A stretch of DNA of 64,000 bases from Parcubacteria group bacterium Gr01-1014_13. Lineage in GTDB: Bacteria > Patescibacteriota > Patescibacteriia > Magasanikbacterales > GWA2-37-8. The translations under genes were made by a program, and so were the position numbers. Below are positions 678 to 58,137 of this stretch, piece after piece (within the stretch, counting starts at the first letter, position 1; each line of letters opens with the position of its first letter). The notes beneath the pieces were generated by a model. It searched no databases and was not told the origin of the DNA. It worked only from the letters and a program-made list of their open reading frames with translations. Where the stretch lies: the NCBI GenBank assembly GCA_007376295.1, contig VMGB01000001.1, positions 285,969 to 349,968 of the forward strand, given 5' to 3'.

Positions 678-2687
678 ATGAATAAATTAAAAAACCGACT
701 CCCTTTACTTATACTTTTTTTTGGCATAGCGGCAAGTTCTTTGTTCGTTTCTCATTACGTACTAGATATTGTTTCCTGGTTCGGAGTGCATTCCGGACCG
801 AAAATATCGCAGGAAGCGCGAGAAGGGATTGATACGGAAATAAGGTACGCTTTAATCCAAGCTAAAGAGCTAGCCGCTAACACAACATTGCGTTCGGCCT
901 TACACGAGCGGGACATTGCAAATCTGCTGGGAATCACCGCCGATGAAGCGCATAAAAGAAATGTGGAAAATATCGTCGTGACGGATGAAAACGGGGTGGT
1001 GCTATCAAGAACTGCAAATGCCACCAAACGCGGCGATTACATTTTTCAAACTACTGTTTGGGGGCATTTGGTAGCCGAAGGCAGAGGAGTTGCAAGCATT
1101 GAAAAAGGCAGAGTAAATCCCCTATTAATAATAGCCGCCTCGCCCATTAAAGAAGCTGGACGATTAATCGGCGGTATTTTTGTTTCCTATAATCTAACTA
1201 ACGATTACGCTAAACGTTTAACGGAAAAGTATCTTGATCCGGGAGTAGAGCTGGCTTTTTATAGTTATGAAAAAGGAGTTGTCGCCACCAGTTTTGACGA
1301 CCCGGAAATGAACTTAAGGCTAACCTCGTATTTTAACAAAGCTTTCCCCAATTCCACTTTTACAAACGAAGGAAATAATAGCTGGTCTAACCACGTTCAA
1401 TTTGACGGCGGTCATTATATGGTACGGTATATGAACCTGTCGGGAACAGACCATAAATTTGTTGGTTCTGTGGTAATTTTTATTCCCTGTCAGCCCGGCA
1501 CTGTGGCTATTATTATCGCCGCTATCCTAACGCTTCTTTTTTTTATATCATCTACGCTTTTTTGTCACTATCGTCGATGTTCAATAAACGGAAGAAACCC
1601 GGTCTCAATCTCTCTGCTCTCACTGTTAGTTTTTACACTGACATTTTTATTGTCATATTTAAACATCATTAGATTTACGACTAAACTTACTAAACCGCCA
1701 TTTACCATTTACAACTCAACCATGGCGTTTGAACCTGAAACCAGCATTGTCAGCAAATACTTTGAGCAGCGAATCGCCATCACTGTCAGTCCGGGCGGCG
1801 AAGCGATTAATACCGTATCAGCCGTAATAAATTATGATCCCAAAGCCGTAAAAATAAAAAATATAATTACGGATAAATCATTCTGCGACCAAAACCTATT
1901 TTTGGAAAAAAATATCGATGAAGCAAATGGTAAAGTTACTATTTCCTGTCTGGCGCCTAATCCGGGTTTTGCCGAACCAAAAGGAATTGTCGCTGAACTT
2001 GTTTTACAACCATTAAATGACGGGTTTATTGGTTTGCGGTTTGATCCCGAAAGCCAGGTTCTGGCCAATGATGGCTTGGGGACAAATGTTTTGCGCCAGG
2101 CTACCGACGGCAGTTATCAAATTGTGGACGAAAGTTTGACAACATCTACACGTTCACTTCTTGTTTTTTCCGTCACTCACCCTAATATTGAGCGCTGGTA
2201 TTCCAAAAAAATTATCGACCTTTCTTGGGTCGCTAAACCGGATCATCTTTACCAGTACGCGCTCAATAAAATTACTGATTTTGTTCCCGACAAAACTGCT
2301 ACCACCACACAACGAACCACGCGGCTGTCTGTGTCCGAAGACGGTATTTACTATTTCCACCTACTGGAAACAAAGAATAATGCCTCAACCGCGCTCGCGC
2401 ACTTCCCTATCAGAATTGATTTAACTCCGCCGCCGCCACCGGTAATCCGGGCAAGCAGCCAAAAAGTTGCCACCGATCAAATAGTCCGGTTTAATTTTGA
2501 AAATTTAGATACTCCGCCAAGTCTGCAATCCGGATTCTTTATTCAATTTAATAAAGGAATATTTTTACCGGTTCAGCCGCCCTTGTTTATGCCATTTCTC
2601 TTCTCCGGGAACTACCACGTCAATGTGCGTGTTTTTGATGCCGCCGGAAATACAAATGACGCGAGCACTACTATTGAAGTTAATTAA
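678..2687 (+). CDS. Large membrane-anchored surface protein. N-terminal TM helix, ~250-aa extracytoplasmic sensor-like region, two internal TM helices, C-terminal beta-rich region. Function unknown
   Basis: 669-aa ORF with hydrophobic segments at aa 8-30 and ~270-330. No kinase, HAMP or other output motif recognised. Confidence 0.55.
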   Translation: MNKLKNRLPLLILFFGIAASSLFVSHYVLDIVSWFGVHSGPKISQEAREGIDTEIRYALIQAKELAANTTLRSALHERDIANLLGITADEAHKRNVENIVVTDENGVVLSRTANATKRGDYIFQTTVWGHLVAEGRGVASIEKGRVNPLLIIAASPIKEAGRLIGGIFVSYNLTNDYAKRLTEKYLDPGVELAFYSYEKGVVATSFDDPEMNLRLTSYFNKAFPNSTFTNEGNNSWSNHVQFDGGHYMVRYMNLSGTDHKFVGSVVIFIPCQPGTVAIIIAAILTLLFFISSTLFCHYRRCSINGRNPVSISLLSLLVFTLTFLLSYLNIIRFTTKLTKPPFTIYNSTMAFEPETSIVSKYFEQRIAITVSPGGEAINTVSAVINYDPKAVKIKNIITDKSFCDQNLFLEKNIDEANGKVTISCLAPNPGFAEPKGIVAELVLQPLNDGFIGLRFDPESQVLANDGLGTNVLRQATDGSYQIVDESLTTSTRSLLVFSVTHPNIERWYSKKIIDLSWVAKPDHLYQYALNKITDFVPDKTATTTQRTTRLSVSEDGIYYFHLLETKNNASTALAHFPIRIDLTPPPPPVIRASSQKVATDQIVRFNFENLDTPPSLQSGFFIQFNKGIFLPVQPPLFMPFLFSGNYHVNVRVFDAAGNTNDASTTIEVN

Positions 2688-2768
2688 GGATATTACAAAA
2701 TAAAAAACACTCTACTTTTGGTAGAGTGACCGGCTCGCGTTTTTAGGCGCGAATACGGAATTTTTAGC

Positions 2769-3581
2769 CTAGTAGTCCCGCCGCGTATTCATAATACTGC
2801 GGCGGAAGAGGTTGTGGTATTTTTCTTCCAACCGCGCCTCTTCTTTGCTATCGTCATGACTGATCAAATCTTGAGGATCAAGAATTTGATCAAAGATTTC
2901 ATGACTGGTAGCTGTATCCACCACCTTGATGCGGATCACCATTTCCTGGTCGGACATCCCGGCGAAAATCGGATTCAGCTCGGGATTGTTGAGTCCACGG
3001 ACCATGTGATCAACAGCCGCTTTCGCCAACGCGTAACGAGAGAAGCTGGCTGCACGCAATCGCGCGCTTTGATCGATCAGATCTTCCAACTCCTTCACGA
3101 ATTGCTTGACAACCTTGTTAGTTGTTGTGCAATTCTGTTCCTCGCGGAATGGCAGATTGATCTCGCCACTTCCTCGGAGTTTTACCACATCTTCGCGGAA
3201 CTTCATGGCTGACTCCAAATCCATCAACTGACCAAGAACCTTGATGTCGTCGTCAATAAGAATATGTATTGACCGTGGCAAAGCGCCTCCAAACTCCACC
3301 CAACCATGCTGGCCACTACAGGTCTGGCAGAGTATGATACCCTTGTAGTTGCGGAGCTTTTCCTCCCTGGTGTTTTGCCCGTTATTATGGCCATTGGGCC
3401 GGCCTGGGTAGGTATACTCTCCGCTGTCAGGAGCCGTATCTTCGAACTTCATCATGTTCCACCCTCTTTCGTGACTGGTTGTATAATCTCCTTCTACCAT
3501 CCCCATGGTAAGAGGAGAAACGGGTGGAGTATAGCACAAAAAAGAGGTTTTGTCAATGTTTGACAAAACTTGTATTTTCAA
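2769..3581 (-). CDS. Hypothetical protein with CQTCSGQHGW (CxxC..H) motif. The ORF-track start is a TTG; the true start is probably the internal MGMVEGDY (~3506)
   Basis: Open frame of 270 codons. The codon at 3579-3581 is TTG, not ATG. No recognisable family. Confidence 0.45.
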   Translation of the reverse strand: MKIQVLSNIDKTSFLCYTPPVSPLTMGMVEGDYTTSHERGWNMMKFEDTAPDSGEYTYPGRPNGHNNGQNTREEKLRNYKGIILCQTCSGQHGWVEFGGALPRSIHILIDDDIKVLGQLMDLESAMKFREDVVKLRGSGEINLPFREEQNCTTTNKVVKQFVKELEDLIDQSARLRAASFSRYALAKAAVDHMVRGLNNPELNPIFAGMSDQEMVIRIKVVDTATSHEIFDQILDPQDLISHDDSKEEARLEEKYHNLFRRSIMNTRRDY

Positions 3582-53130: not shown

Positions 53131-53162
53131 AAAAAATTTAAAATCTATCTCCTTAGACTATC

Positions 53163-53197
53163 AAAAAACAAGGTTTTTTACAACCTTGTTTTTTTGG
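53163..53197. terminator. Terminator (AACAAGGTT-TTTTAC-AACCTTGTT flanked by A6/T7)
   Basis: 9-bp stem. Follows the membrane-protein gene ending at 53210. Confidence 0.55.
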
Positions 53198-53626: not shown

Positions 53627-53668
53627 ATATTATATAAATTAATAGTTAAACACTTAAACTATTATAGC

Positions 53669-53700
53669 AAAAAACAAGATTGATTACAATCTTGTTTTCG
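53669..53700 (-). terminator. Terminator of the three-gene module (AACAAGATTG-ATTA-CAATCTTGTT + T6 on the − strand)
   Basis: Perfect 10-bp stem 58 nt past the stop of the last gene. Confidence 0.6.
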
Positions 53701-53757
53701 GTCTGTGCAGGCTTGGTGGGACGCGCTTGGAGTTTATTTGGCTATTCCAACCTAAAT

Positions 53758-54477
53758 TTAAGAAGCTATTTTTATAACCGGTCTCCAGATACCGTTTAAC
53801 CGCTCAATACCCCAAAAATAATCTTTATTTGTTGTAGAATTTCCTTCGATAATCATTGCTACTATTTCTGCCTTTACCTCAACATTTTTAACACCGAGTT
53901 TAAAATTTTTAATCCCAAACCCTGCATAGCCAAGTCTTAACTCTTTGTCTAAGCAGTGTACCTGTTTTCCCGAACTTGAATTTCTTCCAACATAAACTGT
54001 ATTAGTTGCCACATCACCAAAAACCATAACGCCGTCTGGAATAACTGCACCGGCCTCATAAATAGCGTCCCATTGTTCCAATTTAAAACCCTTTGATTTT
54101 AAACCATTAACAATTTGACCAGAAAAATTTGATGTTTCATCAGATACGCTAGAGGTCAACCCGTTAGAGTTGACTACCGCAACAACTTCGTAGTTTTTGT
54201 TTATTTTTTTTGAACACTTTACGATTTCGTCTAGTAAAGTGTTATCTACTTGTCTTTCTTGATTACCAATATAAGTATTATTTTCTACTTTATTCCCTGC
54301 CACATTATCACCAGACCCATAGCTATTCTGTTCGCTAACCTTGTTACCGCTGAAATTTAAAATTTTATTTCCAACAAAAAACCACCCAATAATTGCTAAA
54401 ATTATCGTAACAATTATTGATAATAAACCAATTTTTTTATTTGTGAGCCACTTATTAAAATCTGACATAATTTGCAT
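53758..54477 (-). CDS. Hypothetical protein with one N-terminal TM helix and a ~200-aa C-terminal domain. Module gene 3
   Basis: IGLLSIIVTIILAIIGWFFVG anchor. Gly/Asn-rich linker. No family recognised. Confidence 0.5.
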   Translation of the reverse strand: MQIMSDFNKWLTNKKIGLLSIIVTIILAIIGWFFVGNKILNFSGNKVSEQNSYGSGDNVAGNKVENNTYIGNQERQVDNTLLDEIVKCSKKINKNYEVVAVVNSNGLTSSVSDETSNFSGQIVNGLKSKGFKLEQWDAIYEAGAVIPDGVMVFGDVATNTVYVGRNSSSGKQVHCLDKELRLGYAGFGIKNFKLGVKNVEVKAEIVAMIIEGNSTTNKDYFWGIERLNGIWRPVIKIAS

Positions 54478-54518
54478 CGGGGATACGAAAAATTACGAGG
54501 GGAATTTACGGGATAGGA

Positions 54519-54555
54519 CGGGCGGAAGGAGGGGTTGAGGGAGGAATTCCGCCCG
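54519..54555. repeat. GC/G-tract-rich hairpin (CGGGCGGAA[GGAGGGGTTGAGGGAGGAA]TTCCGCCCG) in the intergenic gap between module genes 2 and 3
   Basis: 9-bp GC stem with a G-tract loop containing an embedded GAATTC. Strikingly GC-rich for this genome. Confidence 0.4.
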
Positions 54556-54596
54556 CCCACTGGCGCACTTTTTACGATTTCAAGTTTTTTTCATGA

Positions 54597-56141
54597 TCAA
54601 GCCTTTGATGGTACTGGTCTGGGAGAAATATCAATGTTGTAATATAGCAATTTTTGAAATTGTTTATTCTTTTTTTTAATTTTTTCTTCTGCCTCAAAAA
54701 TTTCACCCTTTATTTCATCAATACGTAAAGAGTCATTTCTCTCCTTTGCTTTTCCGGATTTATAATGTTGAGATGTTAAATAAACTGCATAACTTGCTTT
54801 TTCTCCTATCGCATAAATTGGCAATTGTCTAGAAATACCGTGTAAATAAGCTGGAATTTTCGGCTCTTCTCCGGTCAGTGCGTCATTACATAAATTTTTA
54901 AGTTCAATTACGATTCTACAAGATCCTTTGATTAATCGAAAATCGATATACCCTCGCCCAGTCTTTACTTCTGTGTCAAAAGTCGTGTCGGGGTAATGTT
55001 GGAAAAAGGAATACGCCATACCATGAAGAAGTCGCCCTACAACAACTTCTTTGCAGTGACCAGAATTAGCTGTGCGTTTTTTTTTCCACATTCGATTCCA
55101 CCCACCTTTATACTCCATGTAGTGATTAAAACTTTCCAAAAAATTAAACAGCAAATCTTTTAAATCGGAACAGCTGTTAACTTCCTTTTTTTCTGTATTT
55201 TTAAAATAATTTTTGAAATTTTTAACAGCAAGAAACTGAAGAAGATCCATTACAAAATTGTACTCACCAGGGTCCTGTCTTTCAACCAACTCAAGATACC
55301 GTCTAATCAAACTATTTTCATCTTCCATTGCAGCATAAATTTCTTTCATCTCTATTTCATCCAAACTTTTGGTAACTATGTTTACAAAACGTTCTTTTAA
55401 AATCACGTCGTCTTTAAGGATTCCAACAATTTTACTCTTCGCGCTATCAGCGCTCGTAATAGTTTGAGCTCGCAAAAATCTTTTAGGTACTAAAATAATA
55501 GCTTCTCCGTTAAATGGGTTTCTTGGTAATTCCTCGTAGACACCTCCTGTCCATTGGAACTCTTTAAAATCAAATTGCTCTCTTACCGGTAATTCAACTC
55601 TAGGAACTCCTAATTTATCGCACTGTTCTTTTGTATATTTAATTAGGTAATCCATCAATAGGCCTGCGGAAAGATCGCTTATACCATCTGGTCCGAGCTG
55701 ATCACCAATAATGGAAAATATGGCTGGGTTAATTTGATTATCTGGGTAATTTTTTTCATCAGCGAGCTGTTTCACTAGCGTACGTTCTAAATAAAATTTA
55801 GTTATAGCGTCCGCAAACCGCTCACCTAGCCCAGCTCCTTTATTTGAACCTTCTGTATAACCAAGATAAATTTCTTTTGGCTCTTTGAACTTAAAAAATC
55901 TTTTTAATTTTATATATTCATCCGGAGTGCCTTTTGTGGTTAGAGATAGTTCATAAGCTCTTTTAAAAAAAATATTAAACCTATTAAAAAGATCTCTCTC
56001 TTCTTTTTTCCTACTCCTTTTAATTAGGAACGGGTCAATAAAAAGCGCTGAATCATACTTCAAATTTGTATCAAAAAAATCCAGGTCTTCTTCTTTGGCC
56101 CTTATACCAAATACTTGTGTAAAATGGATTGATGATGACAT
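54597..56141 (-). CDS. Uncharacterised 514-aa protein whose C-terminal region carries a PD-(D/E)xK-like nuclease signature (GYIDFRLIKGSCRIVIELK). Module gene 2
   Basis: A hydrophobic-D ... x13 ... hydrophobic-ELK arrangement near aa 385-405. The large N-terminal region matches no domain I recognise. Confidence 0.55.
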   Translation of the reverse strand: MSSSIHFTQVFGIRAKEEDLDFFDTNLKYDSALFIDPFLIKRSRKKEERDLFNRFNIFFKRAYELSLTTKGTPDEYIKLKRFFKFKEPKEIYLGYTEGSNKGAGLGERFADAITKFYLERTLVKQLADEKNYPDNQINPAIFSIIGDQLGPDGISDLSAGLLMDYLIKYTKEQCDKLGVPRVELPVREQFDFKEFQWTGGVYEELPRNPFNGEAIILVPKRFLRAQTITSADSAKSKIVGILKDDVILKERFVNIVTKSLDEIEMKEIYAAMEDENSLIRRYLELVERQDPGEYNFVMDLLQFLAVKNFKNYFKNTEKKEVNSCSDLKDLLFNFLESFNHYMEYKGGWNRMWKKKRTANSGHCKEVVVGRLLHGMAYSFFQHYPDTTFDTEVKTGRGYIDFRLIKGSCRIVIELKNLCNDALTGEEPKIPAYLHGISRQLPIYAIGEKASYAVYLTSQHYKSGKAKERNDSLRIDEIKGEIFEAEEKIKKKNKQFQKLLYYNIDISPRPVPSKA

Positions 56142-56178
56142 TTTATAGATTATTCAAAAGGGGTTGGAACCGAACTAA

Positions 56179-56541
56179 CTATTTGAATTTTTTAAAGTAG
56201 TCAGGATTTGCCATGGCTACCATTAAGACATTGTCAAAACTATATCGACCATACCCAAAGGTCTCTTCCTCAAAATTTTCTCCTTCTTCCAACTTTATAT
56301 ATTTAATATAATCAAGTATTGAATTAATTAATTTACCTCGAAATTCAATTTGAGCCTTGAACCCTTCTAAACCAAGTTCGTCTGAGTTTGTACGATTAAA
56401 TTGTTTCATGTGAGAAGCCATCTGATCGGCCTTAACATACACTTGCAACCACAAATGTTTTATTACAGTTTCCCAACGAAAGGTACGTTCTACCCATTTA
56501 ATTATAAAAATCGCCAAAATTATTATTACTAGATACCACAT
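56179..56541 (-). CDS. Small protein with an N-terminal TM helix (120 aa). Module gene 1
   Basis: MWYLVIIILAIFIIKWV anchor. TATAAT box 12 nt upstream of the start, giving a near-leaderless mRNA. Confidence 0.5.
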   Translation of the reverse strand: MWYLVIIILAIFIIKWVERTFRWETVIKHLWLQVYVKADQMASHMKQFNRTNSDELGLEGFKAQIEFRGKLINSILDYIKYIKLEEGENFEEETFGYGRYSFDNVLMVAMANPDYFKKFK

Positions 56542-56585
56542 ATTAATTGTAAATTATACCCGATTTTGGGGGATTTACGACAGTG

Positions 56586-56658
56586 CAGGCCCGCTCGGAT
56601 TCGAACCGAGAACCGCGGTTTTGGAGACCGCTGTTTTACCATTGAAACTACGGGCCTA
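56586..56658 (-). tRNA. tRNA-Trp(CCA)
   Basis: Reverse complement AGGCCCGTAGTTTCAATGGTAAAACAGCGGTCTCCAAAACCGCGGTTCTCGGTTCGAATCCGAGCGGGCCT. Anticodon loop CTCCAAA. Confidence 0.85.
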
Positions 56659-56705
56659 AGAATAAACCCCGCCCGGAAAACTTTTCGGCGCGGGGCTTAT
56701 TTGTT

Positions 56706-56861
56706 TTACTTTGTTTCTTTGTGTTCGGTGTGCTTCTTGCAAAACTTACAAAATTTTTCCAGTTCCAATCGGTTCTTTAGAACCTTTTTGTTCTTGCTGG
56801 TAAAATAATTTGTGCGTTTGCATTCTTTGCACTCCATCTTCACCATGTTGTCTTGTGACAT
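56706..56861 (-). CDS. rpmG: 50S ribosomal protein L33
   Basis: Hand translation [51 protein letters not shown] (Cys4 L33 signature). Absent from the ORF track because it is under 60 aa. A GC-rich terminator follows. Confidence 0.85.
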
Positions 56862-56911
56862 ATGTTTATTTAATTTTAAATTCTTCGCGACACAATATAG
56901 TATGCCGTTTG

Positions 56912-57171
56912 AGCCGTTGTCGGGATTTGAACCCGAGACCTTTTCCTTCGCTTACACCTCTAGTTTAAATTAGAGGACTAGACTGTATCTTGAGCATGCC
57001 CTTTCGAGTTTAGCTCCCCTTGTCAGTCGTTCGGGCGTATTCACGCCACGGTCTTGACCAATATTATGGCTTTTAACCGTAATTCGGGTGACATTGCAAG
57101 ATTTCCCTTGCAATGGGCAGGAGTCACTGCGACCCACCATGGAAATGCTCTACCAACTGAGCTACAACGGC
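56912..57171 (-). tRNA. tRNA-Thr(GGT), tentative anticodon, interrupted after position 36 by a ~187-nt group-I-like intron
   Basis: Exon 1 GCCGTTGTAGCTCAGTTGGTAGAGCATTTCCATGGT (57171-57136), exon 2 AAGGAAAAGGTCTCGGGTTCAAATCCCGACAACGGCT (56948-56912). Together they form a canonical cloverleaf. Confidence 0.65.
56949..57135 (-). ncRNA. Group I intron-like insert in tRNA-Thr(GGT): R-like CGAACGACTGACAAGG, S element AAGATACAGTCTAG, 3' terminal G
   Basis: The 5' exon ends in U. The intron ends ...GTGTAAGCG followed by AA of the anticodon loop. GACTG/CAGTC pair as P7. Confidence 0.55.
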
Positions 57172-57194
57172 ATTGTGTTTTTTCTTTTTACCTG

Positions 57195-57468
57195 TGGGCA
57201 GACTAGGATTCGAACCTAGGAAGGCGTAGCCAGCTGATTTCACTAATCCAAAAGTTTCCTTATGGCGTGGACTATATCTTTACCCATATAGGGTACTCTG
57301 GTATCTAGTCTCTACGGCGCTCCCTATCCGCGGCGGATAAGGTTCCCACGGTATTAGCATAGCCCTTGCTTTAGCTTTCACCGTTATCCCAGAGAGTTCA
57401 TCCCAAGGTTACCCTTGAGAGCTGCATTTTCTACAGTCAGCCCCGTTTGACCGCTTCGGTATCTGCCC
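57195..57468 (-). tRNA. tRNA-Tyr(GTA), type II with a long variable arm, interrupted between anticodon nt 35 and 36 by a ~192-nt group-I-like intron
   Basis: Exon 1 GGGCAGATACCGAAGCGGTCAAACGGGGCTGACTGT (57468-57433), exon 2 AAATCAGCTGGCTACGCCTTCCTAGGTTCGAATCCTAGTCTGCCCA (57240-57195). Spliced loop reads CTGTAAA. Confidence 0.7.
57241..57432 (-). ncRNA. Group I intron-like insert in tRNA-Tyr: R element CCGTAGAGACTAGATACC, S element AAAGATATAGTCCACGCC, 3' terminal G
   Basis: Near-consensus group I R (..AGAGACTA..) and S (AAGATATAGTCC) elements. The upstream exon ends in U. Confidence 0.6.
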
Positions 57469-57474
57469 ATCTTA

Positions 57475-58137
57475 CTACAAAGTGTTTACCAAACTATGGC
57501 AAAGTGATAAAATTTTCTCTAAAAGTTTTTTATCGCTATAGCGCACATGAATAACACCGTAAGGCATTGATCTTTTGCCTCTGTTGAAAATTGAACGCAC
57601 ATATGGTTTCGTAAACTGATTTCGTTCAACATTCAACTGAAGCGACCAATATTTAATCAAAGCATTCTGATCCTGATCTGAAAAACAATATAGATATAAT
57701 CGCAATCGTTTCTCGTCTATACGACAAATTGTTCTTAAAAACTTTAAAAACAATTTAGCTACTCGAGTATCTGAATTTGCAAAATCAACCGTAACGGATG
57801 TCTTTGCTCCTTCGCCATAATATAGCATAATTGCCGCGATCAAAAGCTCACGTTCTTTCACTGAGAGATTTTCTTTAAAGCGAAAAGATAAAGGTTTTCT
57901 CTCAAAAAGAATTCTGTTTTGTTCCCACATACTCTTGCGTGGTATTTGGTGACGGCGAAGAGAACCGTATATCTGTTTTAAAGATAATTTTAACTTGATG
58001 GAGATTTCTCTCCCTGTCATACCTTGATTGTACAAGTCTTTCACCAAGAATTCCTGTTTATTGGTAATTGTTTTTTTAGGCATAAACAAATGGCGTATAG
58101 CCAATTGTAGTATACCATATAATTTGTAAACGAACAA
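57475..58137 (-). CDS. Free-standing ORF inside the tRNA array: N-terminal helix-turn-helix plus a C-terminal region with a degenerate LAGLIDADG-like stretch (LLIAAIMLYYGEGAKTS). Possible homing-endonuclease-like protein
   Basis: 220-aa ORF between tRNA-Thr(TGT) and the intron-bearing tRNA-Tyr. HTH LVKDLYNQGMTGREISIKLKLSLKQIY. Confidence 0.45.
   Translation of the reverse strand: MFVYKLYGILQLAIRHLFMPKKTITNKQEFLVKDLYNQGMTGREISIKLKLSLKQIYGSLRRHQIPRKSMWEQNRILFERKPLSFRFKENLSVKERELLIAAIMLYYGEGAKTSVTVDFANSDTRVAKLFLKFLRTICRIDEKRLRLYLYCFSDQDQNALIKYWSLQLNVERNQFTKPYVRSIFNRGKRSMPYGVIHVRYSDKKLLEKILSLCHSLVNTL

Follow-up and report, generated by a model that had tools for sequence, protein, structure and literature searches.

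Introduction

The described system closest to the locus presented here is PDC-M36, one of 145 candidates (PDCs) picked as embedded in BREX, DISARM or Type I restriction-modification (RM) loci; it is a three-gene cassette, FAM_01399>>FAM_00303>>FAM_00303, for which the supplement lists family codes only (Payne et al., bioRxiv 10.1101/2024.01.29.577857). The present analysis concerns a 64-kb stretch of DNA, referred to as the window, from Parcubacteria group bacterium Gr01-1014_13, in which three genes located next to tRNA-Trp on a small islet are abbreviated g1, g2 and g3. Its main subject is the protein encoded by g2, whose N-terminal part matches the hidden Markov model (HMM) of component A of this cassette (PDC-M36A), both being hypothetical proteins found among defence genes. 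Unlike PDC-M36, the window contains neither another component of the cassette nor a host system of the kinds mentioned.

Bacteria of the Candidate Phyla Radiation (CPR) have tiny genomes in which few defence systems have been recognised. The g2 protein is a new CPR member of a family, DUF8370/DUF8371, that is already catalogued and functionally uncharacterised, and the locus is not a new three-gene system. The genomic context of its relatives and their domain fusions make it rather likely that g2, a PDC-M36A-like protein encoded on a small islet, is an autonomous, single-protein candidate nuclease directed against phages or mobile genetic elements (MGE).

Other described nucleases can be compared with g2. 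The similarity to Type II restriction endonucleases (REases) of the BamHI, OkrAI and BstYI type is below family thresholds and, in contrast to these enzymes, g2 has no cognate methyltransferase alongside. From the RecB/Cas4-like nucleases it differs in the absence of the Cas4-type four-cysteine cluster and in an added N-terminal domain of 355 amino acids (aa) without known fold. MspJI and AspBHI (Type IV) and Can2 and Card1 (CARF-nucleases) combine N-terminal recognition with a C-terminal PD-(D/E)xK domain and, by analogy with them, g2 may be divided into a sensor and an effector following the same logic, although its N-terminal domain is not SRA or CARF. REase effectors have also been linked to EADs, which are adaptor domains recruiting effectors in prokaryotic conflict systems (Kaur et al. 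2020, PMC7159879), and some members of the g2 family carry C-terminal EAD1, EAD11, CHAT or TIR domains as described there; g2 itself lacks an EAD, and no STAND, vWA-MoxR or GTPase core genes are located nearby.

Results

Assignment of g2 to the DUF8370/DUF8371 family

A protein identical to g2 (P0001) is annotated with PF28123 (DUF8370, N-terminal) and PF28130 (DUF8371), as taken from precomputed domain annotation, the Pfam version scanned being older than both models. In PADLOC, the PDC-M36A model PDLC04597 matches aa 7-232 of g2 (E 4.7e-23), the match spanning HMM positions 8-219 of 457, about the first half only, and PDLC04598 matches with E 3.2e-6; distant relatives of g2 match PDC-M36A up to E 1.5e-46. 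Nearly the full length of g2 is matched by PHROG 30194 (E 1e-32), which has no function assigned there, and the names given to the family in RefSeq are 'DUF8370 family protein' or 'hypothetical protein'. A profile search among 1.84 billion cluster representatives (50% identity) has revealed at least 5,044 at E <= 1e-3 and 1,235 at E <= 1e-30. Most family members have 470-520 aa and are matched end to end, the length and architecture of g2 being typical, and both domains are shared. The CPR members constitute their own subgroup, with 37-48% identity among themselves and 19-27% to the remaining family.

A preliminary description of this DNA, made from the sequence, had considered the locus assignable to no named system. 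This no longer fully holds, given the DUF8370/DUF8371 annotation and the PDC-M36A match, catalogue entries that are themselves uncharacterised; in the literature no mention of PDC-M36, PF28123/PF28130 or DUF8370/DUF8371 was found.

Domains of the g2 protein

The g2 gene and its parts are the following (positions are those of the window):

54597-56141, minus strand: g2, open reading frame (ORF) of 514 aa.
55077-56141, minus strand: g2 N-terminal domain (aa 1-355; DUF8370; part matching PDC-M36A).
54597-55076, minus strand: g2 C-terminal PD-(D/E)xK domain (about aa 360-514; DUF8371) and stop codon.
54942-54944, 54903-54905 and 54897-54899, minus strand: predicted catalytic codons of D400, E413 and K415, respectively (codons verified).

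According to its motifs and its modelled structure, the C-terminus of g2 is a PD-(D/E)xK nuclease domain, for which cleavage activity is predicted. The motif GYID(400)F ... VIE(413)LK(415) is present, both E413 and K415 being invariant in 37 sequences with identity down to 19%, and the conservation of D400 and Q439 reaching at least 90% there; further key residues are E391 and Q439xxxY443 (Q439-L-P-I-Y443). The AF2 model is confident (pLDDT 89, pTM 0.88) and contains an alpha-beta-beta-beta-alpha-beta core at aa 365-458, with the catalytic D...(D/E)-x-K on strands beta2 and beta3, as expected for the PD-(D/E)xK superfamily. The best structural matches of this domain are the Type II REases OkrAI, BamHI, BstYI and BglII, and AspBHI and Can2 are also among the matches. 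The RecB/Cas4-like QxxxY motif is found after the core, its Q aligning with the KxQL motif of Cas4, and the family profile aligns the D, ExK and QxxxY motifs to the Cas4-family chains 4ic1 and 4r5q (weak matches). Weak similarity of g2 to Cas4 and NucS was also detected, and some family members show sub-threshold matches to Mrr_cat and DpnII-MboI. The PD-(D/E)xK call made earlier for this region therefore agrees with the motifs, the predicted fold and the weak family matches, and the structure prediction proposed as a check of it has yielded this fold in the g2 model. The four-cysteine Fe-S cluster of Cas4 was not found, no conserved Cys column being present in the family alignment, in which C408 is kept only within the close CPR group. 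A PDB sequence search with the single g2 sequence gave no match, nor did BFVD viral structures at E <= 0.001 or phage genomes searched by tblastn.

The N-terminal domain contains the invariant residues D30, D36, E87, G94, G102, D152, S155, D156 and P219. Compared with PDB structures it resembles no solved fold, in keeping with the earlier statement that this region was not recognisable, and no modified-base reader (SRA, PUA, YTH or winged helix) and no CARF domain were recognised in it. Proteins of about 280-320 aa encoded on tiny Gram-positive plasmids match the DUF8370 region only (query aa 1 to about 283), their length leaving no room for a full nuclease domain. Since these N-terminal-only proteins occur, the DUF8370 domain can exist alone, and its role may exceed that of partnering a nuclease. 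Two of them are the following:

2500-3456, L027, Bacillus cereus 4.5-kb plasmid: N-terminal-only relative.
942-1793, L028, Lacticaseibacillus paracasei 6.8-kb plasmid: N-terminal-only relative.

Genomic context of g2 relatives

Close CPR homologs of g2 were used for a profile scan of genome contigs, and close relatives (37-48% identical) were found spread over Paceibacterota, Daviesbacteria, Roizmanbacteria, Saccharibacteria and Doudnabacteria. About 10 independent loci with g2 homologs share no neighbour genes, apart from one weak match of 26.5% identity between two of them (L006 and L007). One close relative (L001) adjoins a complete Type II RM system (PADLOC REase_II, E 6e-73), T5orf172 and Fic; another is located near three DNA methyltransferases, a serine recombinase and tRNA-Ser, and another beside PemK and an S24 repressor. 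Close relatives also lie near RelA_SpoT/PDC-S33, SIR2-like and Schlafen-like genes, and other neighbours are DUF4238 at one locus and a serine recombinase at another. The homolog of locus L012 directly follows tRNA-Gln.

Two P4-like satellite hotspots, one of Klebsiella and the other of a further contig of enterobacterial type, harbour distant relatives, located there between the integrase and Ogr/Delta or Psu. The variable hotspot of P4 satellites is well known to harbour antiviral systems (PMC9122126, PMC11754643). The neighbour of the g2 relative is an AAA_31 gene in one of these loci and a convergent SIR2_2 gene in the other. The AAA_31 neighbour in Klebsiella was considered as a conserved partner or as PDC-M36B and rejected, given that it has no PADLOC match and that SIR2_2 replaces it in the other P4 hotspot. 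In a Bacillus mycoides plasmid, a g2 relative is located between TOPRIM plus UvrD (Gabija-like) genes, an integrase and McrBC. In E. coli, the g2 relative is found at one place per genome.

Longer members of the family (P0142, P0177, P0206, P0235 and P0236) are extended at the C-terminus by EAD1, EAD1 plus CHAT, TIR or EAD11, and through these EAD, CHAT and TIR fusions the family is linked to the NTPase-centred conflict systems described in PMC7159879. Altogether, neighbourhoods and fusions provide strong circumstantial grounds for an immunity role of the family, so that the defence-type signature proposed in the preliminary description is borne out for g2 and its relatives by the P4 hotspots, the RM, Gabija-like, McrBC and SIR2 neighbours and the fusions. 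The contexts of the relatives also suggest that the g2 protein acts as a self-contained unit, since no neighbours are common to the independent loci, no homologs of g1 or g3 are found there, and a hairpin directly follows g2.

Insertion of the islet at tRNA-Trp

Features of the islet and its borders other than g2 are the following:

56706-56861, minus strand: rpmG (L33), Ribosomal_L33 match, E 3e-17.
56585-56657, minus strand: tRNA-Trp(CCA), detected by ARAGORN, Rfam tRNA 60.8 bits, aligned to the empty site of L032; its 3' end is the putative islet insertion point.
56583-56590, minus strand: left copy of the 8-bp direct repeat GCCTGCAC, overlapping the final bases of tRNA-Trp.
56553-56558, minus strand: TATAAT (-10-like box), within the islet, 11 nt 5' of the g1 ATG.
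56179-56541, minus strand: g1, ORF of 120 aa with a single N-terminal transmembrane (TM) segment (aa 1-22).
54516-54558, minus strand: GC-rich stem-loop, 12-bp stem and 19-nt C-rich/pyrimidine-rich loop, 38 nt past the g2 stop.
53758-54477, minus strand: g3, ORF of 239 aa with a single N-terminal hydrophobic segment (aa 11-43).
53705-53712, minus strand: right copy of the direct repeat GCCTGCAC; homology to the L032 empty site restarts here.
53665-53698, minus strand: hairpin and U6 terminator, 13-bp A/U-rich stem, outside the islet and ancestral to the tRNA-Trp locus.

Relatives of the locus were collected through rpmG. In the closest one (L032), the flanking proteins share 82-93% identity with those of the window and the gene order is the same (M16 peptidase, tpiA, TPR protein, tRNAs, rpmG and tRNA-Trp), followed directly by the terminator and a DUF1761 gene, without insert. 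The window matches L032 through the end of the tRNA (...GGGCCTGC) and then diverges, and the homology restarts at GCCTGCAC-AGACC-GAAAACAAG..., which corresponds to the terminator. The repeat GCCTGCAC is present in three copies in the window, two of them exactly at the junctions and 2,878 bp apart. The GC content at third codon positions (GC3) of g1-g3 is 26-31%, compared with 31-51% in neighbouring genes. Location at a tRNA 3' end, flanking direct repeats and absence from a close relative, by which tRNA-linked islands are recognised, are all found here. The comparison of both sequences supports the view that the segment at about 53705-56590 is a 2.88-kb integrase-less islet inserted at the 3' end of tRNA-Trp. 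It carries only g1-g3, and no integrase or recombinase domain was found on it in scans with Pfam, PADLOC and NCBIfam-type libraries; no terminal inverted repeats were seen at its ends on reading, and the repeat scan gave no inverted pair joining them.

The slot after tRNA-Trp appears to be a local hotspot, because more distant relatives hold other cargo there. In one of them (L049, 8260-11600), a 278-aa ORF and an AAA_28 gene share the slot with a convergent gene for a 571-aa protein, in which a LexA DNA-binding domain is fused to S24 peptidase and C5 cytosine methylase domains.

The LexA-S24-C5-methylase fusion is an unusual architecture, and the genes that fill this hotspot in L049 may together make up a regulated, RM-like cassette.

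An insertion beside tRNA-Trp had been proposed in the preliminary description, and the empty site of L032 and the direct repeats bear it out. The argument then given, that rpmG and tRNA-Trp are followed by secE-nusG in most bacteria, is not relevant, the ancestral neighbour of tRNA-Trp in this lineage being the DUF1761 gene or variable cargo. It was also checked whether g2 could be a conserved core gene with a fixed neighbourhood: it is absent from the closest relatives at this locus, and the neighbourhoods of its homologs are variable.

Conservation of g1 and g3

No homolog of g3 other than itself was found among 5.8 billion proteins (ORFan), and its sole family match, to a PHROG membrane protein, is weak and driven by the TM segment; Pfam and NCBIfam gave no match, and PADLOC none at E <= 1. 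For g1, 32 homologs (44-86% identical) were found, which constitute a small Paceibacterota family separate from that of g2. In Pfam, NCBIfam and PHROGs g1 has no match, and in PADLOC only a weak, sub-significant one to Cas6 (E 0.032). Three neighbourhoods of g1 homologs were examined, and they have no genes in common with one another or with the window, and no g2 relative. The possibility that g3 is related to a 238-aa gene adjoining the closest g1 homolog was tested, and both were unrelated.

Around g2 homologs, at about 10 independent loci, no ORF resembling g1 or g3 was found even at E <= 1. About half of these loci have a small, non-homologous TM-protein gene alongside and half do not. This adjacency is uninformative because CPR genomes are rich in small membrane proteins. 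From these comparisons, g1 and g3 are best described as unrelated small membrane-protein passengers on the same islet and not as conserved partners of g2. The earlier proposal of a three-gene module is not sustained, with g3 an ORFan, the g1 family in unrelated loci devoid of g2 relatives, and neither a g1 or g3 homolog nor a shared neighbour at the g2 loci.

Transcription signals and other sequence elements

The three ORFs, tRNA-Trp, the TATAAT box, the GC hairpin, the terminator and the TM segments listed in the preliminary description are all present at the positions given there. The spacer between tRNA-Trp and g1, for which 44 bp had been reported, measures 43 nt and contains the TATAAT box as described. 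A consensus promoter scan gave no full promoter at this box, with no adequate -35 box, and a transcript initiating there would be nearly leaderless. The spacer between g2 and g3 has 119 nt and includes the GC hairpin (-28.9 kcal/mol, z = -4.05), with none of 200 shuffled sequences folding equally well. Several g2 homologs also have a comparable hairpin 3' of the gene, and the GC hairpin is probably a 3' terminator or stabiliser for g2, which marks the end of the g2 transcript and separates g2 from g3. The hairpin was also considered as a dispersed repeat, an idea rejected on finding no further copies in the window. A Rfam scan of the whole window at gathering thresholds detected four tRNAs only, none of them on the islet.

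CCUCC motifs, with the same sequence as the anti-Shine-Dalgarno core, are found in the 19-nt loop of the hairpin (54528-54546, UUCCUCCCUCAACCCCUCC).

The terminator after g3, described earlier as strong and as ending the module, is a real hairpin. It is not GC-strong, was missed by the consensus terminator scan, and does not belong to the module: because it matches the terminator located right after tRNA-Trp in L032, the element at 53665-53698 is considered the ancestral tRNA-Trp terminator. A scan for direct and inverted repeats has revealed that two 34-nt terminator-like palindromes (53159-53192 and 53665-53698), 85% identical, flank the DUF1761 gene. A similar hairpin is carried by L032 directly after tRNA-Trp, and it may be a bidirectional terminator typical of this lineage.

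The neighbouring tRNA cluster

At 56900-57475 (minus strand), two tRNA genes missed by ARAGORN appear to be split by group I introns. The halves of a tRNA-Tyr(GUA)-like gene flank a Rfam Intron_gpI match (57248-57448; 47 bits, E 2e-10, with a gathering score of 50). The second one, probably tRNA-Thr(GGT) by comparison with relatives, has its halves at about 57172 and about 56915, with a weak intron match (14.9 bits). Intact tRNA-Tyr or tRNA-Thr(GGT) genes are found at the matching positions in L032, L033 and L049.

A 220-aa ORF (57475-58137, minus strand), located between tRNA-Thr and the split tRNA-Tyr, has an N-terminal helix-turn-helix and, by eye, a LAGLIDADG-like 'LYYGEGAK' motif. Relatives with 27-39% identity were found in L032 (7065-7667), L033 (8215-8871), L035 (4132-4791) and L036 (7086-7682), placed variously before rpmG or between rpmG and tRNA-Trp. 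Their different positions in related genomes suggest that this ORF is mobile and resembles a homing endonuclease.

Just before tRNA-Trp, at 56664-56700 (minus strand), rpmG has a GC-rich hairpin with a U-rich tail (UUUAUUCUU) (AAGCCCCGCGCC...GGGCGGGGTTTATT), conserved in L032. Since rpmG has its own hairpin and U-rich tail, tRNA-Trp would be expressed by read-through or from an unrecognised promoter.

Discussion

According to the interpretation favoured here, the N-terminal domain of g2 would recognise the target or an infection cue, for instance foreign or modified nucleic acid, or alternatively would possess a second activity. Recognition would license the C-terminal PD-(D/E)xK domain to cut DNA, and this cutting would destroy the invader or abort the infection. 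A more far-reaching proposal, put forward tentatively and with a clearly smaller chance of being right, is that DUF8370 is a new-fold sensor or catalytic domain which, together with the nuclease, constitutes an immune nuclease encoded by a single gene and very widely distributed (at least 5,000 clusters), with a trigger or chemistry on D30/D36/E87/D152/D156 unlike that of known restriction, CARF-linked or SRA-linked nucleases.

The alternative that g2 is a solitary restriction enzyme, either a modification-dependent Type IV enzyme with a reader domain or an orphan Type II enzyme with its methyltransferase elsewhere, overlaps with the autonomous immune nuclease and differs from it solely in the trigger of cutting. 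Type IV enzymes typically stand alone and combine an N-terminal reader with a C-terminal PD-(D/E)xK domain, a pattern that the two-domain arrangement of g2 fits. Type IV-like enzymes with PUA reader domains are cited in PMC11754643. Type II REases are the best structural matches of g2, with AspBHI also appearing, some members of the family show the sub-threshold matches to Mrr_cat and DpnII-MboI, and some homologs adjoin DNA methyltransferases. This alternative is nevertheless unlikely: no methyltransferase domain was detected in g1 and g3, nor in the DUF1761 and HD genes flanking them, the RM system adjoining the L001 relative already has its own REase, the N-terminal domain of g2 is unlike SRA, PUA, YTH and winged helix domains, and fusions to EAD, TIR and CHAT are atypical of restriction enzymes. 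A housekeeping nuclease of DNA repair or recombination, in the manner of RecB, Cas4 or NucS, would account for the QxxxY motif and the weak similarity to Cas4 and NucS. It is very improbable for a gene that the closest relatives lack at this locus, that is sporadic across CPR phyla and of atypical composition for its genome, and whose relatives reside on plasmids and in satellite hotspots.

The islet as a whole can also be read in two other ways. If g1, g2 and g3 were one three-component defence or abortive-infection system, the membrane proteins would serve as sensor, anchor or membrane effector; the genes are co-directional, share the same inserted segment and a low GC3 and are preceded by the TATAAT box, and several g2 homologs adjoin non-homologous small TM-protein genes. 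There is little probability in this, as g3 lacks homologs, g1 homologs (44-86% identical) occur in three unrelated neighbourhoods without a g2 relative, no homolog of g1 or g3 lies beside any g2 homolog, many of which have no TM neighbour, a stable hairpin and the 119-nt spacer stand between g2 and g3, and PADLOC gives nothing for g3 and only the weak Cas6 match for g1. A selfish role in mobility, with g2 as a free-standing homing endonuclease or transposase-like enzyme that spreads itself and flanking genes into tRNA-proximal sites rather than defending the host, is equally doubtful. An integrase-less islet with an 8-bp direct repeat on both sides, located at the 3' end of a tRNA, the homolog placed directly after tRNA-Gln, the patchy family with variable neighbourhoods, and the presence in the same tRNA cluster of group I introns and a mobile homing-endonuclease-like ORF would all agree with it. 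No terminal inverted repeats were seen at the islet ends, however, g2 is single-copy per genome where this can be checked (one place per genome in E. coli), several loci have a separate recombinase nearby, and the placement in P4 hotspots among defence genes, as well as the TIR, CHAT and EAD fusions, point to immunity.

Several considerations weigh against g2 as an immune nuclease on an inserted islet. The 8-bp repeat is short and there is one close relative only, so that a deletion in L032 is formally possible. PDC-M36 is itself a candidate only, chosen by guilt-by-embedding; its other cassette components were not found in the window with PADLOC, g1 and g3 matching no PDC-M36 model. The defence context has been read from individually examined loci, and the family was already flagged as a defence candidate in PADLOC, the window itself adding no functional proof. 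The DUF8370 domain may have a role unrelated to defence, given the N-terminal-only plasmid proteins, and its invariant acidic residues could make it an enzyme rather than a sensor. The TM-protein genes at about half of the g2-homolog loci leave, strictly speaking, room for an analogous partnership.

For defence-gene mining, this locus is a caution, as small membrane-protein genes beside an effector looked like partners and the comparative data say otherwise. The window and L032 constitute a clean natural before/after pair, an empty tRNA-Trp site versus a 2.9-kb islet with a candidate defence nuclease. The g2 family is large and cross-phylum, is found in validated defence hotspots, is fused to immune adaptor and effector domains and has a structurally unprecedented N-terminal domain, which makes it a reasonable experimental target. 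If the more far-reaching proposal on DUF8370 is true, the range of the DUF8370-nuclease family would extend from ultra-small CPR bacteria to the P4 satellites of enterobacteria and plasmids of Gram-positive bacteria.

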